Shown piece after piece: positions 3,728 through 60,459 of a DNA stretch of 64,000 nucleotides. A program made the translations under genes and the position numbers. The notes under the pieces are model-generated. The model did no database searches and was not told the origin of the DNA. It saw only the letters and a list, made by a program, of their open reading frames with translations. How positions within the stretch are numbered: position 1 is the stretch's first letter; every line of letters begins with the position of its first letter. Source of the stretch: an uncultured Candidatus Saccharibacteria bacterium (lineage in GTDB: Bacteria; Patescibacteriota; CALEFQ01); contig OZ246404.1 of assembly GCA_965230955.1 (NCBI GenBank), forward strand, positions 1,060,024-1,124,023. The letters run 5' to 3'.

Positions 3728-3806
3728 AAGAATTAAGATATAAGATGTAAGATATAAGAAAGTTGTTTCAGTCTTAAATCTTATATCTTACTTCTTATTT
3801 CTTATT
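3728..3806. repeat. imperfect palindrome built from TAAGATATAAGA words, in the clpE leader between CIRCE and the start codon
   Basis: Left arm aagaattaagatataagatgtaagatataagaaag; right arm cttaaatcttatatcttacttcttatttcttatt (its reverse complement shares the taagatataagat core). Confidence 0.7.
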
Positions 3807-3949: not shown

Positions 3950-4348
3950 ATGGAAGACTCTATCCGATTAAGCTTGCCGGATTGCTTGGCTATTTGCGAG
4001 CGATTAAAACAGCTTTATTCCCAAGCAACGGTCATCCGACAACCGAGCGGCCGAGATATCGATTTTCTGATAAAAATCTGGGTCGGTTTAAGAGCCGAAC
4101 TGGGTCTGGAAGAAGAAAAAGTAGATTCTCATGACGGCCACAATTACATGGCAAAGCTGGAACTGATCCGCGAAGACTGGTATAAGCACCGAGAAGAGGA
4201 AACTTCACTGATACTGCGGCGATATATCCTGATTCACTATTCTGAGAAAGATGACAAAATAGAACTGATAGCCAATCTCCTACTGGATCATCTTAGGGAG
4301 CTCGTCGGGAAAATCACCAAATTACAACTGGGACCGGATTGGACTTGA
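3950..4348 (+). CDS. hypothetical protein (132 aa)
   Basis: AGGAGG RBS 7 nt upstream of ATG 3950. No recognisable domain. Confidence 0.45.
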   Translation: MEDSIRLSLPDCLAICERLKQLYSQATVIRQPSGRDIDFLIKIWVGLRAELGLEEEKVDSHDGHNYMAKLELIREDWYKHREEETSLILRRYILIHYSEKDDKIELIANLLLDHLRELVGKITKLQLGPDWT

Positions 4349-6613: not shown

Positions 6614-6690
6614 GAGTCAAAAGTAAAAAGTAAAAAGTCAAAAGTGCGATTACCGATACTTCTGACTTTTGATTTTTGACCTTTGACTTA
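6614..6690. repeat. GTCAAAAG-word palindromic hairpin between the response regulator and prsW-like gene
   Basis: Left arm gagtcaaaagtaaaaagtaaaaagtcaaaagtgcg; right arm cttctgacttttgatttttgacctttgactta. Confidence 0.7.
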
Positions 6691-7062: not shown

Positions 7063-7067
7063 GGGTT

Positions 7068-7140
7068 TTTATCTTTAGTCTTTAGTCTTTGGTCTTTAGA
7101 AACCGAAAGCTCGCGCTAAAGACAAAAGATCAACGACTAG
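7068..7140. repeat. TCTTTAG-word imperfect palindrome between the HK and RR genes
   Basis: tctttagtctttagtctttggtctttag ... ctaaagacaaaag. Confidence 0.55.
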
Positions 7141-16535: not shown

Positions 16536-16630
16536 AAAGATATTAAGAATATTAAGATATTAAGAACTTTAAGAGTTAGAGGTTGTCACTATCTTAAAAT
16601 CTTAATTTCTTAATACTCTTAATATCTTTT
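16536..16630. repeat. ATTAAGA-word palindromic hairpin, probable terminator after the vanW-like gene
   Basis: Left arm gatattaagaatattaagatattaagaactttaagag; right arm ctatcttaaaatcttaatttcttaatactcttaatatctttt. Confidence 0.7.
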
Positions 16631-16794
16631 TTCACTTATCCACTTCCGTTAATACAGCGCCCTTGCTACTCTGATATTAGTCCCTCTGGTGATGTCTACT
16701 CCTCTTTAATTAGGGGAACAGGGATCAAAACAAAATACCCTCCGAGCTCTCGGAGGGGAAACCCTCGCCCGAAACGTGGCGGGGGATTTTGTTT

Positions 16795-16872
16795 AACTAA
16801 GTCAAAAGTCAAAGGTCACAAGTTGCGAATTCCGAAACTTTTTACTTTTGATCTTTGACTTTTGACTTAGTT
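16795..16872. repeat. GTCAAAAG-word palindromic hairpin inside a 500-bp noncoding stretch
   Basis: aactaagtcaaaagtcaaaggtcacaag ... ctttttacttttgatctttgacttttgacttagtt. Confidence 0.7.
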
Positions 16873-17182
16873 AAAAAAACTCGCGCCCATAACGCTGTAG
16901 ACGGAAGACACAGCCACAGGAACAAACCAGAAACTTCTCCGCCGAAGCAGAGAGCTCCAGTAAGCCCTACAAATGCGTCCCCACTGGTGATGTCTACAGC
17001 GTAAAAAGCACGAGTATCAGCAAACGCCCCATTATATCAATTTACAGGTATTTGTCAAGCTATTTCCCGCTATAACCTCAACGGCCTGGTTATGAGGTAA
17101 ATAACAATGGGCTAAAATAGATCGACAAAATATCAAGCATTTGCTAAAACAATATGGTCTACCACAGCCAAAGGAGGGCAAA

Positions 17183-19485: not shown

Positions 19486-20475
19486 ATGTTGCGTCGCGCC
19501 GCTCGAAATGCTCTGACCACCTGCCTCGCCGTCAAAAAAAACGAGGAAGTTTTAATCGTGTCTGATTTCAAAAGACTGGCGATTGCCACGGCCCTGTACC
19601 AAGAAGCGTTGATACTAGGCGCCGAACCAATGATCAAACTGATGCATCCCCGAGTCGGTCACGGGATTGAGCCGCCCCGCACCGTCGCCCGAGCCATGGC
19701 TGAAGCTGATGTCGTGCTTTGTCCCACAGAAAAAAGCCTGACACACACCGATGCCCGCCGGATAGCTTGTGAAAAACACGGCAGCCGCATTGCCACCCTA
19801 CCGATGATCACGGAGGAAATATTTATCCGCGGTCTGTTGGCTGATTATTTGGATATAAAAAAACAATCGGAGAAACTTTTGAGCCTGGTGAACTCGGCCC
19901 AAACCGCCCGGATCACTTCCCCCAGCGGAACCGATTTAACCATAAATCTCAGTAATCGCTTTCACGCTGATATCGGCGTAATCCCCAAACCGGGAATGTA
20001 CACCAATTTGCCCGCCGGTGAAGTCTGCGGCGCACCGCTGGAAGGCACGACTGAAGGTATTTTTGTCATAGACCAGATGGGTGAGGTTGTCGATCAACCG
20101 ACACGGGTCGAGATCCGTTCCGGCATCGCCGTAAAAATCGAATCTAACCCCAGCGGCCGGCGACTAAAAAAAATTCTGGATTCTGCCAGTAAACGGGATA
20201 AGAATAACCACGCCTTTAATATAGCCGAATTGGGTATTGGCACCAATCCCGCCGTAAAATTGTCCGGCTGTGTATTGGAAGACGAAAAAGTATTAGGCAC
20301 TGTTCATGTCGCTCTGGGGGATAATACCAGCTACCATGGCGGACAAACCTCGGCTTCAGTGCATGAAGACGGCATTATGATCAGGCCGACGCTAAAACTA
20401 GATGATCGGGTGATTATGAAAGATGGAAAGATGGTAAAATCAAGTCAAAAGTCAAAAGTCAAAGGTCAAAAGTAA
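19486..20475 (+). CDS. aminopeptidase-like protein (M29 / AmpS-like family, tentative)
   Basis: Overall resemblance to thermophilic-metalloprotease (M29) family proteins. The last 10 codons are encoded by one arm of a GTCAAAAG palindrome. Confidence 0.45.
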   Translation: MLRRAARNALTTCLAVKKNEEVLIVSDFKRLAIATALYQEALILGAEPMIKLMHPRVGHGIEPPRTVARAMAEADVVLCPTEKSLTHTDARRIACEKHGSRIATLPMITEEIFIRGLLADYLDIKKQSEKLLSLVNSAQTARITSPSGTDLTINLSNRFHADIGVIPKPGMYTNLPAGEVCGAPLEGTTEGIFVIDQMGEVVDQPTRVEIRSGIAVKIESNPSGRRLKKILDSASKRDKNNHAFNIAELGIGTNPAVKLSGCVLEDEKVLGTVHVALGDNTSYHGGQTSASVHEDGIMIRPTLKLDDRVIMKDGKMVKSSQKSKVKGQK

Positions 20476-20520
20476 TGATAATCGAGACTTTTTACTTTTA
20501 ATTTTTTACTTTTGACTTAT
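20441..20520. repeat. GTCAAAAG-word palindromic hairpin overlapping the 3' end of the preceding CDS; probable terminator
   Basis: caagtcaaaagtcaaaagtcaaaggtcaaaag ... ctttttacttttaattttttacttttgactta. Confidence 0.7.
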
Positions 20521-20601
20521 TAAAAAATCCCGCATTAAGCTTGCCTGCGCAAGCAAGACGGGGTTTTTATAAACCTCGCGACTAAGTTTTGGGGCGTACT
20601 C

Positions 20602-47359: not shown

Positions 47360-48817
47360 ATGTCCTTTGTTAAGCGTAAAATTGCCATTTCCACCGCCTT
47401 TCAGTTTTCCGGGAAAATAATCTCCACCCTATTGGGACTGGTTTCTATCGCTATGATTACCAGGCATCTCGGGGTGGAAGGCTATGGCCAGTATGCTACC
47501 GCAATTACTTTTGTCGGTATTTTTTCGATTATCGCCGATATGGGGCTGTACATCTATGTGGTGCGGGAGATTTCCAAAAAGGCGGAGGAATCGGAATATA
47601 TCGTCAGTAATGTCTTTACTTTCCGAATTATCAGCGCCTTGGTTTTACTGGCACTGGCTCCTTTAACGGCACTATTTTTCCCATATGGTTCGGTCGTGCA
47701 GACGGCGATACTGATCGCGACTTTGTCATTCTTTTTTATTTCACTGAATCAGGTTTTGATCGGAGTTTTTCAACGGGAGTTTGACACCAAGATGGTGGCG
47801 GCGGGAGAAATAGTCGGACGGGTGGTATTAATTGCCGCTTTGGCTCTGGTCATCTGGTGGAATCTCGGTTTAACGGCGGTCATCTGGGCACTGGTAATCA
47901 GCAGCGCCGCTAATTTTTTCCTTGTTTTTTTCTCGGCTCGTAGCCGAATCAAAATCCGGCTAAGGTTTGATATAAAGTTTTGGAAAGAAATTTTCAAGGT
48001 TACCTGGCCGATCGCTATTTCCGTCGTGCTTAACGCGATATATTTTAAACTGGATATGGTATTTTTGTCTGTCATGAAATCGGAATATGACGTGGGGTTG
48101 TACGGCGAAGCTTATAAAATTCTGGAAGTTCTAATCGCTTTCCCCGCCATGTTTGCCGGCTTACTCATGCCGTTGCTAAGCCAGAGCGCCTTTGTCGATT
48201 GGCCTAAATTTAAAAATGTTTTAGGGAAAGGTTTTGATTTTTTAATTATGGCCGCCCTGCCGATCTTGGTGGGCGGCTGGGTATTGGCGGAGCCGATCGT
48301 GGTTTTTGTGGGCGGACGGGATTTTGTCGGCGCGGCGCCGATTTTAAGGATTCTGGTGATCGCGACGGCGCTGATTTTCATCGGCAATTTATTTGCCAAT
48401 GCGGTCGTGGCGGTTAACAAGCAGAAACAAATGGTCTGGATGTACCTCCTGACCTCTGTCGCCGCGGTCATTTTATATTTTGTGACGATTCCCCCTTTTT
48501 CTTATTTCGGAGCGGCCTGGTCGACGGTGGCGGTGGAAGCCCTGATGGCTTTGTTGGCTTTTATCATGGTTTGGAAAACATCTCGCGCCCGGCCGTCACT
48601 GAAGAATTTAGGCAAGGCGATTTTGGCCGCGGCGGTGATGGCCGGCGTCCTGATTATCGGGGTGAATTGGTGGCCCGGGGACATGGTCTGGTGGAAAATG
48701 GTAATATTGTTAGCACTGGGCTTATTCGGGTATATCTCTATTATCCTTGGTACTGGAGCAATAAGTCGAAAAGATATCAACGAGATTGTTAGGACTAAGG
48801 CGCCCAGTAAAGTTTAA
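47360..48817 (+). CDS. polysaccharide flippase (Wzx/MOP superfamily)
   Basis: About 14 TM helices with the oligosaccharide-flippase pattern. TTGACT-17-TAGAAT promoter at about 47241-47269. Confidence 0.7.
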   Translation: MSFVKRKIAISTAFQFSGKIISTLLGLVSIAMITRHLGVEGYGQYATAITFVGIFSIIADMGLYIYVVREISKKAEESEYIVSNVFTFRIISALVLLALAPLTALFFPYGSVVQTAILIATLSFFFISLNQVLIGVFQREFDTKMVAAGEIVGRVVLIAALALVIWWNLGLTAVIWALVISSAANFFLVFFSARSRIKIRLRFDIKFWKEIFKVTWPIAISVVLNAIYFKLDMVFLSVMKSEYDVGLYGEAYKILEVLIAFPAMFAGLLMPLLSQSAFVDWPKFKNVLGKGFDFLIMAALPILVGGWVLAEPIVVFVGGRDFVGAAPILRILVIATALIFIGNLFANAVVAVNKQKQMVWMYLLTSVAAVILYFVTIPPFSYFGAAWSTVAVEALMALLAFIMVWKTSRARPSLKNLGKAILAAAVMAGVLIIGVNWWPGDMVWWKMVILLALGLFGYISIILGTGAISRKDINEIVRTKAPSKV

Positions 48818-48918
48818 AGATTTAAAGTTCAAAATTTAAGGGAAATTGAAATATAGTAATATAAAAGTTCAACTTTAACACTTTGAGTTCCGAACTTGCT
48901 GGCGTAATCAATTTACTT

Positions 48919-56110: not shown

Positions 56111-56137
56111 AACGGGTGGAGACCTCCACCCGTTTTG
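56111..56137 (+). terminator. intrinsic terminator aacgggtggag-ac-ctccacccgtttt
   Basis: 11-bp perfect stem, 2-nt loop and a T-tract. It overlaps the GTG that the ORF track used as the start of the next gene. Confidence 0.65.
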
Positions 56138-56148
56138 TGATGATTCAA

Positions 56149-57615
56149 ATGAAAAAAATTATTACCAAGCTAATTGTTGTTTTTCTGGGCGTGACTATGT
56201 TTTTTCCCTTGATCAGTCAGGGGCAAGGTTTTAATAAGAATAATGTTATTTCCGATGAGTTTCTGGCGACCAGTGATAAAATGAGCGGATCAGAAGTGCA
56301 GAATTTTTTGGAAACTCAGCGTGGGCGCCTGGCCAGTTACCGCACGCGGGATATTAATGGCGTGGAAAAAAGCGCCGCCGAAATTATTTACGAGGCGGCG
56401 GCTCAATTTAAAGTTAATCAGCGTTTCCTTTTGGCTTTGTTGGAAAAAGAGCAAGGTTTACTCTCTAATCCGAATCCTTCGGCCAAGGCTTTGGACTGGG
56501 CGACCGGTTTTGGACCGCTGGCCTCGGCCAAGTATCGAGGATTTGGCGCCCAGGTTTACTACGCGGCCAAAGCGATGGGGCGTGATTATGATCTTTATTC
56601 TGATTATTATCGCGGTTTCCCGGTGGGGAGAGAAACTATTACAGAGGACGGAGAAAGAGTGCGCCCAGAGAACAACGCCACTCGTAAATGCTATATCTAT
56701 AATCCCCTGGTCGGCGGACCGGACAAAAATTGGGGTGCCAATTGGCTGTTATGGCAATTAATTAATGTAAAATTTGCATCAGCGTTTGCGCGGTACACCG
56801 GCACGGGAATTGACGACAGAAACTTTATGGCGGCTGATTTCGCCGCCGGCAAGTACTTCTACCGCGAAGGAACGGCGGTAAAGGTGGCGGGCGGACGAGC
56901 GACTTACGTGATCGAAAACGGCCGCCGCTATCACTTCACCGGTCCCAATGCCCTGCGACTGCGCTACAATCCGAAGGAAGTGGTCACTATATCATTGGAA
57001 GAATTTTCTTCATATCCCGAAGGTGGCGCCATGGGACTACCTGACGGTATCGCTGTTCAGCGTCAAAAGGGAGGCGCGGTCTATATTGTGGCGGATGGTG
57101 AGTTGCATGGCGTGCCCGATGCCCAAGTCTTGAGCCAATTGGGATACCACCCTTCCCAAGTGGTCAAAGTGACCGACGCGGAAATAAACAGTCAGCCCAA
57201 AGGAGAATCAATTTCTTCGACGAATCTGTCTCGTCCCAATAACCAATTGGTTAAAATCGCCGGGCAAAACTCTCTGTATGTCTATAAACAAAACAAGCTT
57301 TATCCGCTTTGGGACGGCAAGGTCAAAGAAGTCAATTTCCCCCACCACCCAGTAATTTTGATCAGCCAAGCCGAAGCCGATAATTACCAAATTGTGCGCC
57401 AGCGCCCGGTGTTATTCCGGGACGGGACTCTCTTGATGGCCACCGATGGATCGCGCGCCAAAGCTGTCTTTGTGATATCGGAGGGCGATCGCTATATCTT
57501 CAATTCCCGCGAGGCGCTGGAAGACAACGGCTATCAAATGAAAAATGTGATCAAAGTATCAAACAAAATATTACAGATGCATCGGGAGGGGCAACGCCGG
57601 GTAGAGGCGGAATAG
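56149..57615 (+). CDS. secreted hypothetical protein (about 489 aa), possibly cell-wall associated
   Basis: MKKIITKLIVVFLGVTMFFPLISQG signal peptide. No confident domain. The start was moved from GTG 56116 (inside the terminator hairpin) to ATG 56149. Confidence 0.5.
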   Translation: MKKIITKLIVVFLGVTMFFPLISQGQGFNKNNVISDEFLATSDKMSGSEVQNFLETQRGRLASYRTRDINGVEKSAAEIIYEAAAQFKVNQRFLLALLEKEQGLLSNPNPSAKALDWATGFGPLASAKYRGFGAQVYYAAKAMGRDYDLYSDYYRGFPVGRETITEDGERVRPENNATRKCYIYNPLVGGPDKNWGANWLLWQLINVKFASAFARYTGTGIDDRNFMAADFAAGKYFYREGTAVKVAGGRATYVIENGRRYHFTGPNALRLRYNPKEVVTISLEEFSSYPEGGAMGLPDGIAVQRQKGGAVYIVADGELHGVPDAQVLSQLGYHPSQVVKVTDAEINSQPKGESISSTNLSRPNNQLVKIAGQNSLYVYKQNKLYPLWDGKVKEVNFPHHPVILISQAEADNYQIVRQRPVLFRDGTLLMATDGSRAKAVFVISEGDRYIFNSREALEDNGYQMKNVIKVSNKILQMHREGQRRVEAE

Positions 57616-57635
57616 TAGATTAGATGATCAATTGA

Positions 57636-57674
57636 AAAGGTGCGGCCTGCCGATTCGGTAGGCCGCACCTTTTG
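57636..57674. terminator. bidirectional terminator hairpin aaaaggtgcggcctgccgattcggtaggccgcacctttt
   Basis: 13-bp GC-rich stem with flanking A and T tracts. It contains the gccgattcgg core seen in two other terminators. Confidence 0.75.
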
Positions 57675-57716
57675 TAATTCACTTGACTGATTTTAACTAG
57701 TTGCTAGAATACAAAG

Positions 57717-57970
57717 AAGTAAAAATGCTGCTGAAGGGTAATTCCTCCGGAGGGGAAGATGCCGGGTAATGGGAAACATGCAGGCAAGGTGGAAATAGAG
57801 AGAGGGGCCACTTTTTCTGGATCTGCCGCGCTAGCCGTCCGCTAATCGGCGAGAATCCTATATTAAAGCGGCTTGGTGTCTTCTACCATTCAGTGGCGAC
57901 CATTTTGGCCAGCCAGTTGGCGATTCTAGTCGAAAGACTTCAATCAACGACTGGCTTGGCCTCTTTTTTT
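57717..57970 (+). ncRNA. candidate independent transcript of about 250 nt (small RNA and/or mRNA for a 28-aa peptide)
   Basis: TTGACT-16-TAGAAT promoter (57683-57710). Intrinsic terminator ggccagccagt...actggcttggcc plus T-tract (57907-57970). No downstream plus-strand gene. It contains an ORF at 57759-57845 (MPGNGKHAGKVEIERGATFSGSAALAVR) with GGAGGGG 5 nt upstream. Confidence 0.35.
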
Positions 57971-57980
57971 TATTTTAAAC

Positions 57981-58011
57981 AAAATCCCCCAGAATCAGTC
58001 CGGGGGATTTT
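57981..58011. terminator. terminator hairpin aaaatccccc-agaatcagtcc-gggggatttt for the radical SAM gene
   Basis: 7-bp GC stem with flanking A and T tracts, just downstream of the minus-strand stop at 58049. Confidence 0.6.
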
Positions 58012-58048
58012 ATTTCCTGTTTTCACAGGCTGGTATGGGAGAGATTGA

Positions 58049-59446
58049 TTATAGTTTACCTTCGTCCCAGGCTTTGCCGACAACTTTCTTTCGTTCTTCG
58101 GCCAGCTTGTCCAGTTCCGGTGCCAGAGAAGTAATAGTGATTTCCCCGCCTTCGTAACTGGCTTTGACGTTTTCGCCGGCTTTGCGTCCGTCGGCGACAG
58201 CTTTTCGAAGATTTTCCGGGTGATCAATGACGCCGCAAGGTCGGAAAAGATCATTGATACCTTCGATCGATTTTCGGTAGGATTTGAAGAATTCCGATTT
58301 CAAAGCTTCGCGGATGGTAGTCTCGTTGATATTATGGACATGGAATTGAGCGAAGACACAAGGTTCGATGGCGCCATTACCGCTAATGTGAAGATAAGCG
58401 CGGCCGGCAGCCAGGCAGCCTTCGGTCAAAATCCCGTCGCCCCAGAAATCAGCCATCAAAAATGGTCTATCGCTCTCGCGCATAGTACGAACGCGATTGC
58501 GGACGTAATTGCGCTGTTCCGGAGTGACCATCAGAGATGTGTCGGGTTTCTTTCCTACCGGCATATATTGGAAATACCAGGCAAAACCGGCGCCTTTGGC
58601 CATCCAGTAATCGATAAATTCATCGGTGGTGACTAGTTTGGCATTGTTTCGAGTGACTGTGACGGAGATCGCAACCGGTACGCCGTATTTGCGAAGGTAA
58701 CTCATGGCGCGTACGATTCGATCGTAAGTGCCTTCACCTCGGCGGGCATCGGTTTCTTTTTGGTAGCCCTCGACGCTGATGCACGGGGTGACATTACCGA
58801 CTTTTTCCAATTGCTTGGCCGTTTCTTCATCGATCAAAGTCCCGTTGGTATAGGTGATGAAGTACATGTCGTTGTGTTCTTTGAAGAGGCGGAGCAAATC
58901 AGCTTTGCGGACATAGGGCTCGCCGCCGGTAATGACGATAAAGTAATTGCCGAAACTTTTCATTTCTTTGCAAACGCGATCCATAACTTCATAGGATAAA
59001 TCGCCGGTCTTTTTCTTGTTGTATTCGAAGGCATAGCAACCGGTACAGGTCAGATTGCAGCGCATGGTCGGACTCATGACACAGAGTGCCGGAGGAGCAA
59101 ATCCTTCTCGTTCTTTGAATTCAGCGCGTAAAACACCGCCCTTAAAAATGGCGTTATTGGCCAGGTTATTTACCAGTTTAAATCGACAATTTGGTGACAG
59201 TTTTTTTGACCAAGCCAAGAAAACGTCGGTCATTTTTAGGGCAAATCCCTTTTGAAACCGCAGTTTGCGCGGATCGAGCTTTTTGGGATTTTCATCAAAG
59301 GATTTTATGATTTTCTTCCGGAAACCTTTGACGATTAAATCCAAGCCGGCGCGAGGAATGCGGGGCAAGGCCCAGGAGCCGGTTTTCGCGGCCAGGTGTT
59401 TTAATTTTTTAGTCAGTTTCGGACCGGATTTACTGGTGGTTGCCAT
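58049..59446 (-). CDS. radical SAM enzyme, HpnH-like core with an N-terminal extension of about 75 aa
   Basis: CxxxCxxC (MRCNLTCTGCYAFEY) at about residue 135. ITGGEPYV and ITYTNGTL motifs. The C-terminal domain has only 3 Cys (EGC, EPC, RPC). The Cys box and downstream motifs resemble adenosylhopane synthase HpnH (FRCNLACAGCGK, GGEPLL, CTNAILL). Confidence 0.75.
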   Translation of the reverse strand: MATTSKSGPKLTKKLKHLAAKTGSWALPRIPRAGLDLIVKGFRKKIIKSFDENPKKLDPRKLRFQKGFALKMTDVFLAWSKKLSPNCRFKLVNNLANNAIFKGGVLRAEFKEREGFAPPALCVMSPTMRCNLTCTGCYAFEYNKKKTGDLSYEVMDRVCKEMKSFGNYFIVITGGEPYVRKADLLRLFKEHNDMYFITYTNGTLIDEETAKQLEKVGNVTPCISVEGYQKETDARRGEGTYDRIVRAMSYLRKYGVPVAISVTVTRNNAKLVTTDEFIDYWMAKGAGFAWYFQYMPVGKKPDTSLMVTPEQRNYVRNRVRTMRESDRPFLMADFWGDGILTEGCLAAGRAYLHISGNGAIEPCVFAQFHVHNINETTIREALKSEFFKSYRKSIEGINDLFRPCGVIDHPENLRKAVADGRKAGENVKASYEGGEITITSLAPELDKLAEERKKVVGKAWDEGKL

Positions 59447-59518
59447 ATTTTTTCGTTGACCCGCCGAACAGAAAGCCGAAGGGTCTTTAAGGTTAATTAA
59501 TAAACAAACGCAAGTTTG

Positions 59519-59546
59519 ATTATACTAAATGGGAGTTAATTGTCAA
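59519..59546 (-). promoter_or_regulatory. consensus sigma70 promoter (TTGACA-16-TATAAT on the minus strand) for the radical SAM gene
   Basis: Reverse complement reads gtcaaTTGACAattaactcccatttagTATAATcaaac. The leader of about 60 nt contains a gaccc...gggtc hairpin. Confidence 0.55.
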
Positions 59547-59787: not shown

Positions 59788-60264
59788 TTAGCGGCGTTTC
59801 TTTCCTTGTCCCGGAGCACCACCAGGGAACATGCAGATTTTCCTACCGGGGAGTCTTGAATGATGCTGGATGTATCCTTCATAATGATCGGGATTTTTCT
59901 GAAATTCCGCCAGGCGAAAAACTAGGTGCTGGCGACAGGCTTCTTCGGGGTCGGTACCGCAGGAAATTTCACGACGGATTTCTTCCAGTTGGGTTAGGAT
60001 ACCAGTAGAGAAGGAAACTGTTGATATTTTGTACCGATCGCAGTAGATACGTTGTTCCGGATCGACAGCCATGGCATGCTCGGAAATTTCCTGACCTGGC
60101 CAGATCATCAGCCGGATGAGAACATTTAATTTGCCTATCTGGCAAAATAACTGGACTCCGTGTTCCCCATTCCGAAATTTGACATCGGTAACCTGGTTTT
60201 GGACAGCCTGTGTCCATTGCCATTCAAACCATTCCATAAACTTTATTATCTGATTATCATCCAT
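59788..60264 (-). CDS. hypothetical protein (158 aa)
   Basis: Own terminator. No recognisable domain. Confidence 0.45.
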   Translation of the reverse strand: MDDNQIIKFMEWFEWQWTQAVQNQVTDVKFRNGEHGVQLFCQIGKLNVLIRLMIWPGQEISEHAMAVDPEQRIYCDRYKISTVSFSTGILTQLEEIRREISCGTDPEEACRQHLVFRLAEFQKNPDHYEGYIQHHSRLPGRKICMFPGGAPGQGKKRR

Positions 60265-60374
60265 AGGTATTTATACCTCCTTAGTGCGGGATTATATTAT
60301 TTATTGGTAAATGTCAATAATATCAAATGCAGTGATTGACCGACCATCAGTGTACCGCTACAATAGCCTTGCTT

Positions 60375-60459
60375 GGGAACGTGGCGGAACTGGTATACGC
60401 GCATGGCTTAGGACCATGTCCCGTAAGGGGTGAGGGTTCGACTCCCTCCGTTCCCACCA
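60375..60459 (+). tRNA. tRNA-Leu (anticodon UAG), class II with long variable arm, CCA encoded
   Basis: Acceptor stem GGGAACG/CGUUCCC, D-arm, anticodon stem CAUGG/CCAUG with loop CUUAGGA, long variable arm, T-arm GAGGGUUCGACUCCCUC, discriminator A and CCA. Confidence 0.85.

Follow-up and report, generated by a model that had tools for sequence, protein, structure and literature searches.

A candidate small RNA gene in a self-contained, apparently young transcription unit between convergent genes of an uncultured Saccharibacteria bacterium

Among described systems, the unit reported here recalls the lineage-specific, trans-acting small RNAs (sRNAs) of bacteria, with which it shares a sigma-70 promoter of its own, an intrinsic terminator whose U-run is long, a length of ~250 nt, a position between convergent genes, freedom from long open reading frames (ORFs), and a narrow distribution. 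It differs from them in having no identified target, seed, or homologue even in a congener, and in its host, a member of the Saccharibacteria within the CPR. Genomes of this group are thought to evolve mainly by loss. To our knowledge, regulatory RNAs are almost unstudied in the Saccharibacteria, and a full-text literature search for small RNAs of the group found nothing relevant. Phage "morons" offer another comparison, being autonomous promoter-gene-terminator cassettes that sit between two genes and are recognised by their absence in relatives; here, too, a self-contained promoter/terminator cassette lies between genes that are adjacent in relatives. However, the locus has no prophage context, its flanks carrying glycosyltransferase, O-antigen-ligase-like, and radical SAM genes; no match was obtained in phage records or IMG/VR; and no protein gene is evident in the cargo. 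Two other systems bear on parts of the unit. Known SPASM maturases, partners of RiPP precursors, cross-link Cys or aromatic/Lys-Trp motifs, and in SAM-III (SMK box) RNAs of Lactobacillales the SD forms the 3' strand of helix P1, ahead of metK.

The window, meaning the whole 64-kb stretch of DNA that was analysed, belongs to a genome of roughly 1.1 Mb (1.14-Mb chromosome) in which spacers are mostly short. Between the gene for a 499-aa protein and a convergent radical SAM gene there is a gap of 433 bp whose G+C content, at 46%, is coding-like, compared with 30-40% in many short spacers. Nearby genes include PMT_2 and Wzy_C-type envelope genes (glycosyltransferase and O-antigen-ligase-like). The features of the locus are as follows.

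56116-57615, plus strand: 499-aa gene without a family match, left neighbour of the unit
57637-57669, plus strand: T1, terminator hairpin of the 499-aa gene, a long near-perfect stem forming the insertion's left border
57683-57710, plus strand: sigma-70-type promoter TTGACT-16-TGcTAGAAT, matching 10 of 12 consensus positions, with a TG extended -10
57717-57971, plus strand: predicted primary transcript of ~250 nt, starting 7 nt past the -10 hexamer and ending in the U-run
57725-57769, plus strand: 14-codon ORF MLLKGNSSGGEDAG, nearly leaderless, starting ~8 nt past the predicted transcription start
57727-57897, plus strand: predicted 5' domain, with a long-range closing helix (57727-57740 / 57884-57897) drawn from base-pair probabilities
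57759-57845, plus strand: 28-codon ORF MPGNGKHAGKVEIERGATFSGSAALAVR, overlapping the 14-codon ORF, with GGAGGGG (57749-57755) ahead of its start
57907-57976, plus strand: T2, the unit's own intrinsic terminator, a 55-nt imperfect hairpin (57907-57961) followed by TC-T8-A-T4 (57962-57976)
57981-58012, both strands: T3, bidirectional terminator hairpin serving the radical SAM gene and forming the insertion's right border
58049-59446, minus strand: radical SAM/SPASM gene, 465 aa (Pfam PF04055, PF13353, and PF13186), a neighbour outside the unit

A preliminary description of this DNA had pointed to a sigma-70 promoter and, about 270 nt later, a strong intrinsic terminator with an inner GUC-GAAA-GAC tetraloop hairpin, and both signals were borne out. 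The promoter consists of TTGACT (57683-57688), a 16-nt spacer, and TAGAAT (57705-57710). Promoter-like sites with at least 10 of 12 consensus matches are mostly intergenic in the window (19 of 30), though intergenic DNA makes up only 17% of it, and some stand before genuine genes: a 12/12 site at 59546 precedes the radical SAM gene, and a site at 60336 precedes a tRNA-Leu gene. Because such sites concentrate between genes and precede real ones, a consensus promoter at the unit is meaningful, even if the local count taken alone (3 found within 3 kb, versus 3.5 expected from shuffles) is not above expectation. The terminator T2, ~245 nt past the promoter, has a folding energy of -28.7 kcal/mol as a hairpin alone and -32 kcal/mol in a 56-nt window, and ranks second by strength among all hairpin-plus-U-run sites on both strands of the 64 kb. 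A simple consensus terminator scan had overlooked it because of its internal loops.

The earlier statement that no plus-strand gene lies 3' of the unit also held, as did the distance of about 75 bp to the stop codon of the radical SAM gene (58049-58051), which we measured at ~75-80 bp from the U-run. T2 followed by T3 makes a plus-strand tandem, so transcription should stop short of the radical SAM gene and the unit should function independently of its neighbours. A separate, independent Logan assembly (L006) has the identical 7.4 kb, unit included, so the unit is not an assembly artefact; the identical contig is also found in run SRR10083292. Since the promoter and terminator signals exceed chance, lie 245 nt apart on the same strand, and enclose no gene, we judge from the sequence that the unit is a real anatomical one and not noise.

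The history of the locus was examined by scanning the radical SAM protein against 185,579 species genomes, in which its relatives were MAGs, four of the five labelled Candidatus Saccharibacteria, and the window is accordingly assigned to a CPR/Saccharibacteria genome. Relatives with the same flanking pair have radical SAM proteins 94% (L016), 93% (L001), 91% (L007), 82% (L014), and 77% (L002) identical to that of the window, and none closer than 94% was present in a 15-billion-protein collection. In all five, the spacer measures only ~57-110 bp, compared with 433 bp in the window, and the whole unit is missing at the syntenic site. Furthermore, L014 has a hairpin at the position equivalent to T1 (whose own energy in the window, with A/U flanks, is -35.1 kcal/mol), and a homologue of T3 (AAACAAAATCCCC...GGGGATTTT) directly abuts it. 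Because relatives hold the same gene pair with a short spacer, and because the T1 equivalent and T3 homologue adjoin in L014, the unit is best described, on these comparisons, as a clean ~300-bp insertion (about 57674-57976) that entered between two pre-existing terminators on this lineage's branch. In a neighbour-joining tree of radical SAM proteins the window falls in the midst of lineages devoid of the unit, so that a single gain on the terminal branch is the parsimonious history. The sole other copy of the unit, which is of the same strain, shows 100% identity over 7.4 kb, with no within-species variation seen.

Immediately 3' of the stop codon of the radical SAM gene (window 58016-58045, plus coordinates), the window shares a box, TGGTATGGGAGAGAT, with L007 and L014 without any difference in sequence. 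The hairpin beside this box varies in sequence and is kept as a hairpin (CCTGTTTTCACAGG in the window, CCTGAGATGCTCAGG in L007, and CGCTGTAATAGCG in L014); L016 and L001 have lost both. Box and hairpin together may constitute a 3'-UTR element conserved in the mRNA of the radical SAM gene.

Searches for known families and homologues returned little. The Rfam covariance scan that the preliminary description had called for over 57717-57970 gave no match at gathering thresholds, at which the only match in the whole window was the tRNA-Leu gene; at E <= 10, the locus yielded terminator-driven noise and one sub-threshold SAM-III match. ARAGORN likewise reported no tRNA or tmRNA at the unit and only the tRNA-Leu elsewhere in the window. 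The earlier observation that hallmarks of RNase P RNA, SRP RNA, and tmRNA are absent agrees with these results. Housekeeping RNAs (6S, SRP, RNase P, and tmRNA) were rejected as candidates on the lack of any Rfam match at E <= 10 and on the unit's absence from the syntenic site in relatives. No similarity to phage or plasmid records was found by blastn, and neither 18 related loci nor the remainder of the window yielded a homologue to nhmmer or tblastn. IMG/VR and the JGI metagenomes, scanned with back-translated multi-pattern queries, gave no relative of the unit or peptide, and the stop-free segments of six frames, concatenated and compared with 5.8 billion proteins, had nothing at E <= 10. 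Complementarity of the unit to potential targets within the window was nowhere above chance. The tRNA-Leu gene (anticodon TAG; 60375-60459, plus strand) has a long variable arm and its own promoter, TTGACC-17-TACAAT at 60336; L001 and L005 have conserved it beside their radical SAM region, and L002 and L004 match it in part.

Two small ORFs lie near the 5' end of the predicted transcript. The 28-codon ORF, with GGAGGGG upstream, is present as previously described, the GGAGG core standing 5 nt before the ATG and forming a duplex of -10 kcal/mol with the anti-SD. Across the 46 long ORFs of the window, however, most starts follow A/T-rich tracts (mean 76% A+T at positions -15 to -1), and only ~4 of the 46 reach a pairing energy of -6 kcal/mol or better with the anti-SD, so GGAGGGG is weak evidence for translation in a genome that rarely uses SD sequences. 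Strong GGAGG exceptions in the window are the ORFs at 3950-4348 and 59788-60264. The SD of the 28-codon ORF is, moreover, predicted to be sequestered in a local hairpin in which GGAGG pairs with CCUCC. Its codon score of 0.11 is matched by 9% of spurious ORFs and falls at the 26th percentile of real windows. The 14-codon ORF had been overlooked in the preliminary description. Its start context is 80% A/T, where real genes of the genome average 76%, and its codon-usage score of 0.41 exceeds that of 99% of 95 spurious ORFs of 11-17 codons. It thus appears the better candidate for a micro-ORF, with a coding signal that is suggestive only, the ORF being short and one of several tested.

No longer reading frame recommends itself. 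There is no ORF of at least 39 aa inside the unit, and the only one in the gap, of 51 aa, passes through T2 and T3. A 92-codon stop-free frame scores -0.15, which equals the off-frame null and lies ~4 sd below real genes (0.20 +/- 0.09), and its G+C is flat over codon positions, without periodicity. An interrupted ORF made of the 14-codon ORF, one TAA, and this frame (107 codons, to 58048) was accordingly rejected on its off-frame codon score, its lack of GC periodicity, and its passage across two terminators. A type I toxin-antitoxin system, whose hallmark is a short hydrophobic toxin ORF overlapped by an antisense RNA, was also rejected: both peptides are hydrophilic, and no promoter turned up on the minus strand within 56500-59500.

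The folding of the unit is modestly informative. With its terminator, the whole unit has a predicted energy of -98.2 kcal/mol (z = -3.7). Without the terminator, the body of roughly 190 nt gives z = -2.06, a fold matched by 9 of 200 shuffles (p about 0.045, for a single sequence), and its reverse strand is weaker at z = -1.42. The closing helix of the predicted 5' domain has 13 of 14 positions paired, where we estimate that ~0.5 such helices would be expected by chance in 184 nt when G-U pairs are counted. Past the 28-codon ORF, ~130 nt of untranslated RNA would fold well. Taken together, we consider the structure evidence for the unit modest.

The sub-threshold SAM-III match (RF01767) is the only Rfam match in the unit body, at 57715-57797, and raises the possibility of a ligand-sensing or attenuator-type leader, such as a SAM-III-like aptamer, that gates antisense read-through into the radical SAM gene or was left behind by a lost downstream gene. 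In the alignment, the letters left unpaired at the junction (GA, A, GAUG, and GUAA) match the consensus exactly, the first 80 nt of the unit fold locally into the three-way junction that also characterises SAM-III, and a short leader ORF followed by a terminator gives the unit an attenuator-like anatomy. Set against this are a score of 17.5 bits versus a gathering score of 45, and an E value of 0.14-0.33; since a search of only 201 nt already gives 0.14, the value for the whole window would be well over 1. Unlike in SAM-III, P1 and P2 are imperfect (three of nine pairs non-canonical), the 3' strand of P1 is GGCAA and GGAGGGG sits in P3 and not in the P1 strand that SAM-III requires, neither metK nor any other gene lies downstream, and the organism is outside the Lactobacillales. 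A metagenome scan with the shared core motif GAAGATGCCNNGTAANNGGAAA produced 24 loci, which are unrelated and show no flanking similarity. SAM-III identity was therefore rejected on the broken P1/P2 pairs, the misplaced SD, the low score, and the unrelated metagenome loci, and the resemblance is best treated as chance. A leader-peptide attenuator fares no better: T2 remains folded under every constraint mimicking a ribosome on the ORFs, so no antiterminator and no attenuator logic are evident, T3 follows as a further terminator acting in this direction, and there is no plus-strand gene beyond. We accordingly regard a leader function of either kind as very unlikely.

The preliminary description had also proposed that the 28-aa peptide might be a precursor for the neighbouring radical SAM enzyme, which would make the locus a RiPP pair like those of sactipeptides, ranthipeptides, mycofactocin, or PQQ. 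The likeness is that of a short ORF adjoining a SPASM-domain radical SAM gene, to which may be added a weak NCBIfam similarity of the enzyme to peptide maturases, among many radical SAM families that all fall far under their cutoffs. No NCBIfam equivalog passes for this protein (best <=92 bits, against cutoffs of 265-650), and its top match is the heme b synthase AhbD, not a peptide maturase. In contrast to RiPP pairs, enzyme and ORF do not co-occur, the enzyme being kept and the ORF missing in every relative examined from 94% to 77% identity (94, 93, 91, 82, and 77%). Homologues of the enzyme number 2145 at E < 1e-30 and span many phyla, and because this widespread family persists without the ORF the precursor-maturase pairing is unsupported. 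The two genes are convergent and separated by three terminators, the radical SAM gene has its own 12/12 promoter, and the peptide lacks Cys, Trp, and Tyr, its core offering neither cysteines nor aromatics, and no conserved peptide family or relatives of it were found. By its non-co-occurrence, composition, orientation, and enzyme distribution, the precursor reading appears contradicted, and we give it hardly any credence. Of the earlier alternative between a novel small RNA and a peptide precursor, the first half thus remains a candidate, with no Rfam family, credible start and stop signals, and a modest structure, and the second is unsupported, for want of co-occurrence. The neighbouring enzyme should not be annotated as a peptide maturase because of the 28-codon ORF.

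The reading that we favour, tentatively and with somewhat less than even confidence, is that of a young, species-specific, stand-alone transcription unit whose product would most likely be a small RNA of ~250 nt, possibly of dual function with a micro-ORF. A self-contained cassette of ~300 bp, made up of promoter, folded body, and strong terminator of its own, would have entered a convergent gene pair, between its two terminators, along the branch that gave rise to this Saccharibacteria species. It would be transcribed independently into a discrete RNA that is the presumed functional product, that would regulate in trans, and that may also carry a translated micro-ORF. A predicted intergenic transcript within 50-400 nt, bounded by its own promoter and intrinsic terminator and free of a long ORF, has the anatomy by which sRNA genes are recognised. 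The extended -10 promoter, given that consensus promoters point to real genes in this genome, the second-strongest terminator in 64 kb, and the coding-like G+C of the gap all argue for this reading, as do the exact T1/T3 insertion and its single-gain tree. So do the lack of any ORF of at least 39 aa, the apparently non-coding 92-codon frame, and the absence of any six-frame protein relative, along with a plus-strand fold predicted to be better than shuffles and the minus strand. Conservation, the other mark of an sRNA gene, was not found: the unit is missing at the syntenic site in all relatives and has no match elsewhere in the databases searched, which would leave selection, covariation, and conservation without support, and the only other copy, from the same strain, adds no variation to judge by. 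The body z-score is modest, the predicted closing helix may be due to chance, target complementarity within the window is not above chance, and the codon scores of the two small ORFs would be compatible with translation.

A serious rival, though one we consider somewhat unlikely, is that the unit is a functionless remnant of a foreign or duplicated cassette, moron-like in origin, that has decayed until only promoter, first codons, and terminator remain, any transcript being evolutionary noise. A singleton that is missing in all relatives and without a homologue of any kind is what such a remnant would look like; the 14 codons after a typical start context resemble a real N-terminus and then stop abruptly, the 28-codon frame has the mildly coding-like character to be expected of a frameshifted relic, and the structure evidence is no more than modest. 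However, promoter and terminator are intact and near consensus, which is unexpected for decaying DNA in a genome of this size with mostly short spacers, residual protein similarity was found in no frame, and the long stop-free frame is not coding-like. Alternatively, the unit may be a small-protein gene for the 14-aa peptide, the 28-aa peptide, or both, with RNA structure only modulating translation. The genome-typical start and high codon score of the 14-codon ORF, and the strong SD and intermediate codon score of its neighbour, point this way; the brevity of the ORFs, of which several were tested, the rarity of SD use and sequestration of this one, the well-folding stretch after the 28-codon ORF, and the absence of relatives of either peptide from IMG/VR, JGI metagenomes, and 5.8 billion proteins make it doubtful. 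Finally, there is a slim chance that the unit represents a functional structured RNA, newly acquired and without described relatives. It could be a SAM-III-like ligand binder that works in trans or gates antisense transcription running toward the radical SAM gene, or else an RNA of dual function that encodes the 14-aa peptide.

The window contains further elements. A second orphan promoter-to-terminator unit lies at 16870-17058 on the minus strand, with a perfect TTGACA-16-(TG)TATAAT promoter (17058..17031). Its RNA of ~150 nt (17026..16870) is predicted to form one long rod-like hairpin of -68.6 kcal/mol that ends in U7; at z = -6.8, with no shuffle as good, it surpasses the ~300-bp unit in structure signal. 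It has no ORF of at least 39 aa on its strand and no Rfam family at E <= 1. Kinship between the two units was rejected, since their local alignment was no better than those of shuffles (47 of 300 scored as high). A 14-mer, GTAGACATCACCAG, occurs twice on the minus strand ~300 nt apart (16984-16997 and 16686-16699), once within the rod-like RNA and once downstream, after AAAGAGGAG. Intergenic tandem-heptamer arrays are found at 153-196, 3734-3806, 6615-6689, 7064-7099, 16537-16628, 16837-16868, 20442-20522, and 48808-48839, often as inverted pairs (TAAGATA x3.7 facing TCTTATA x4.9, and AAGTCAA x4.6 facing ACTTTTT x5), and would form long periodic hairpins at gene ends. Rfam scores likening these arrays to plant-miRNA-like hairpins were dismissed as noise.

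In sum, if the newly acquired structured RNA described above were real, in either of its forms, it would offer an uncommon glimpse of a regulatory RNA gene being born in a minimal, host-dependent CPR genome. Should the unit prove to be transcribed and functional, it would represent a cleanly dated gene gain in the Saccharibacteria, present in one species and missing at the same site from relatives whose radical SAM proteins are 94% identical.
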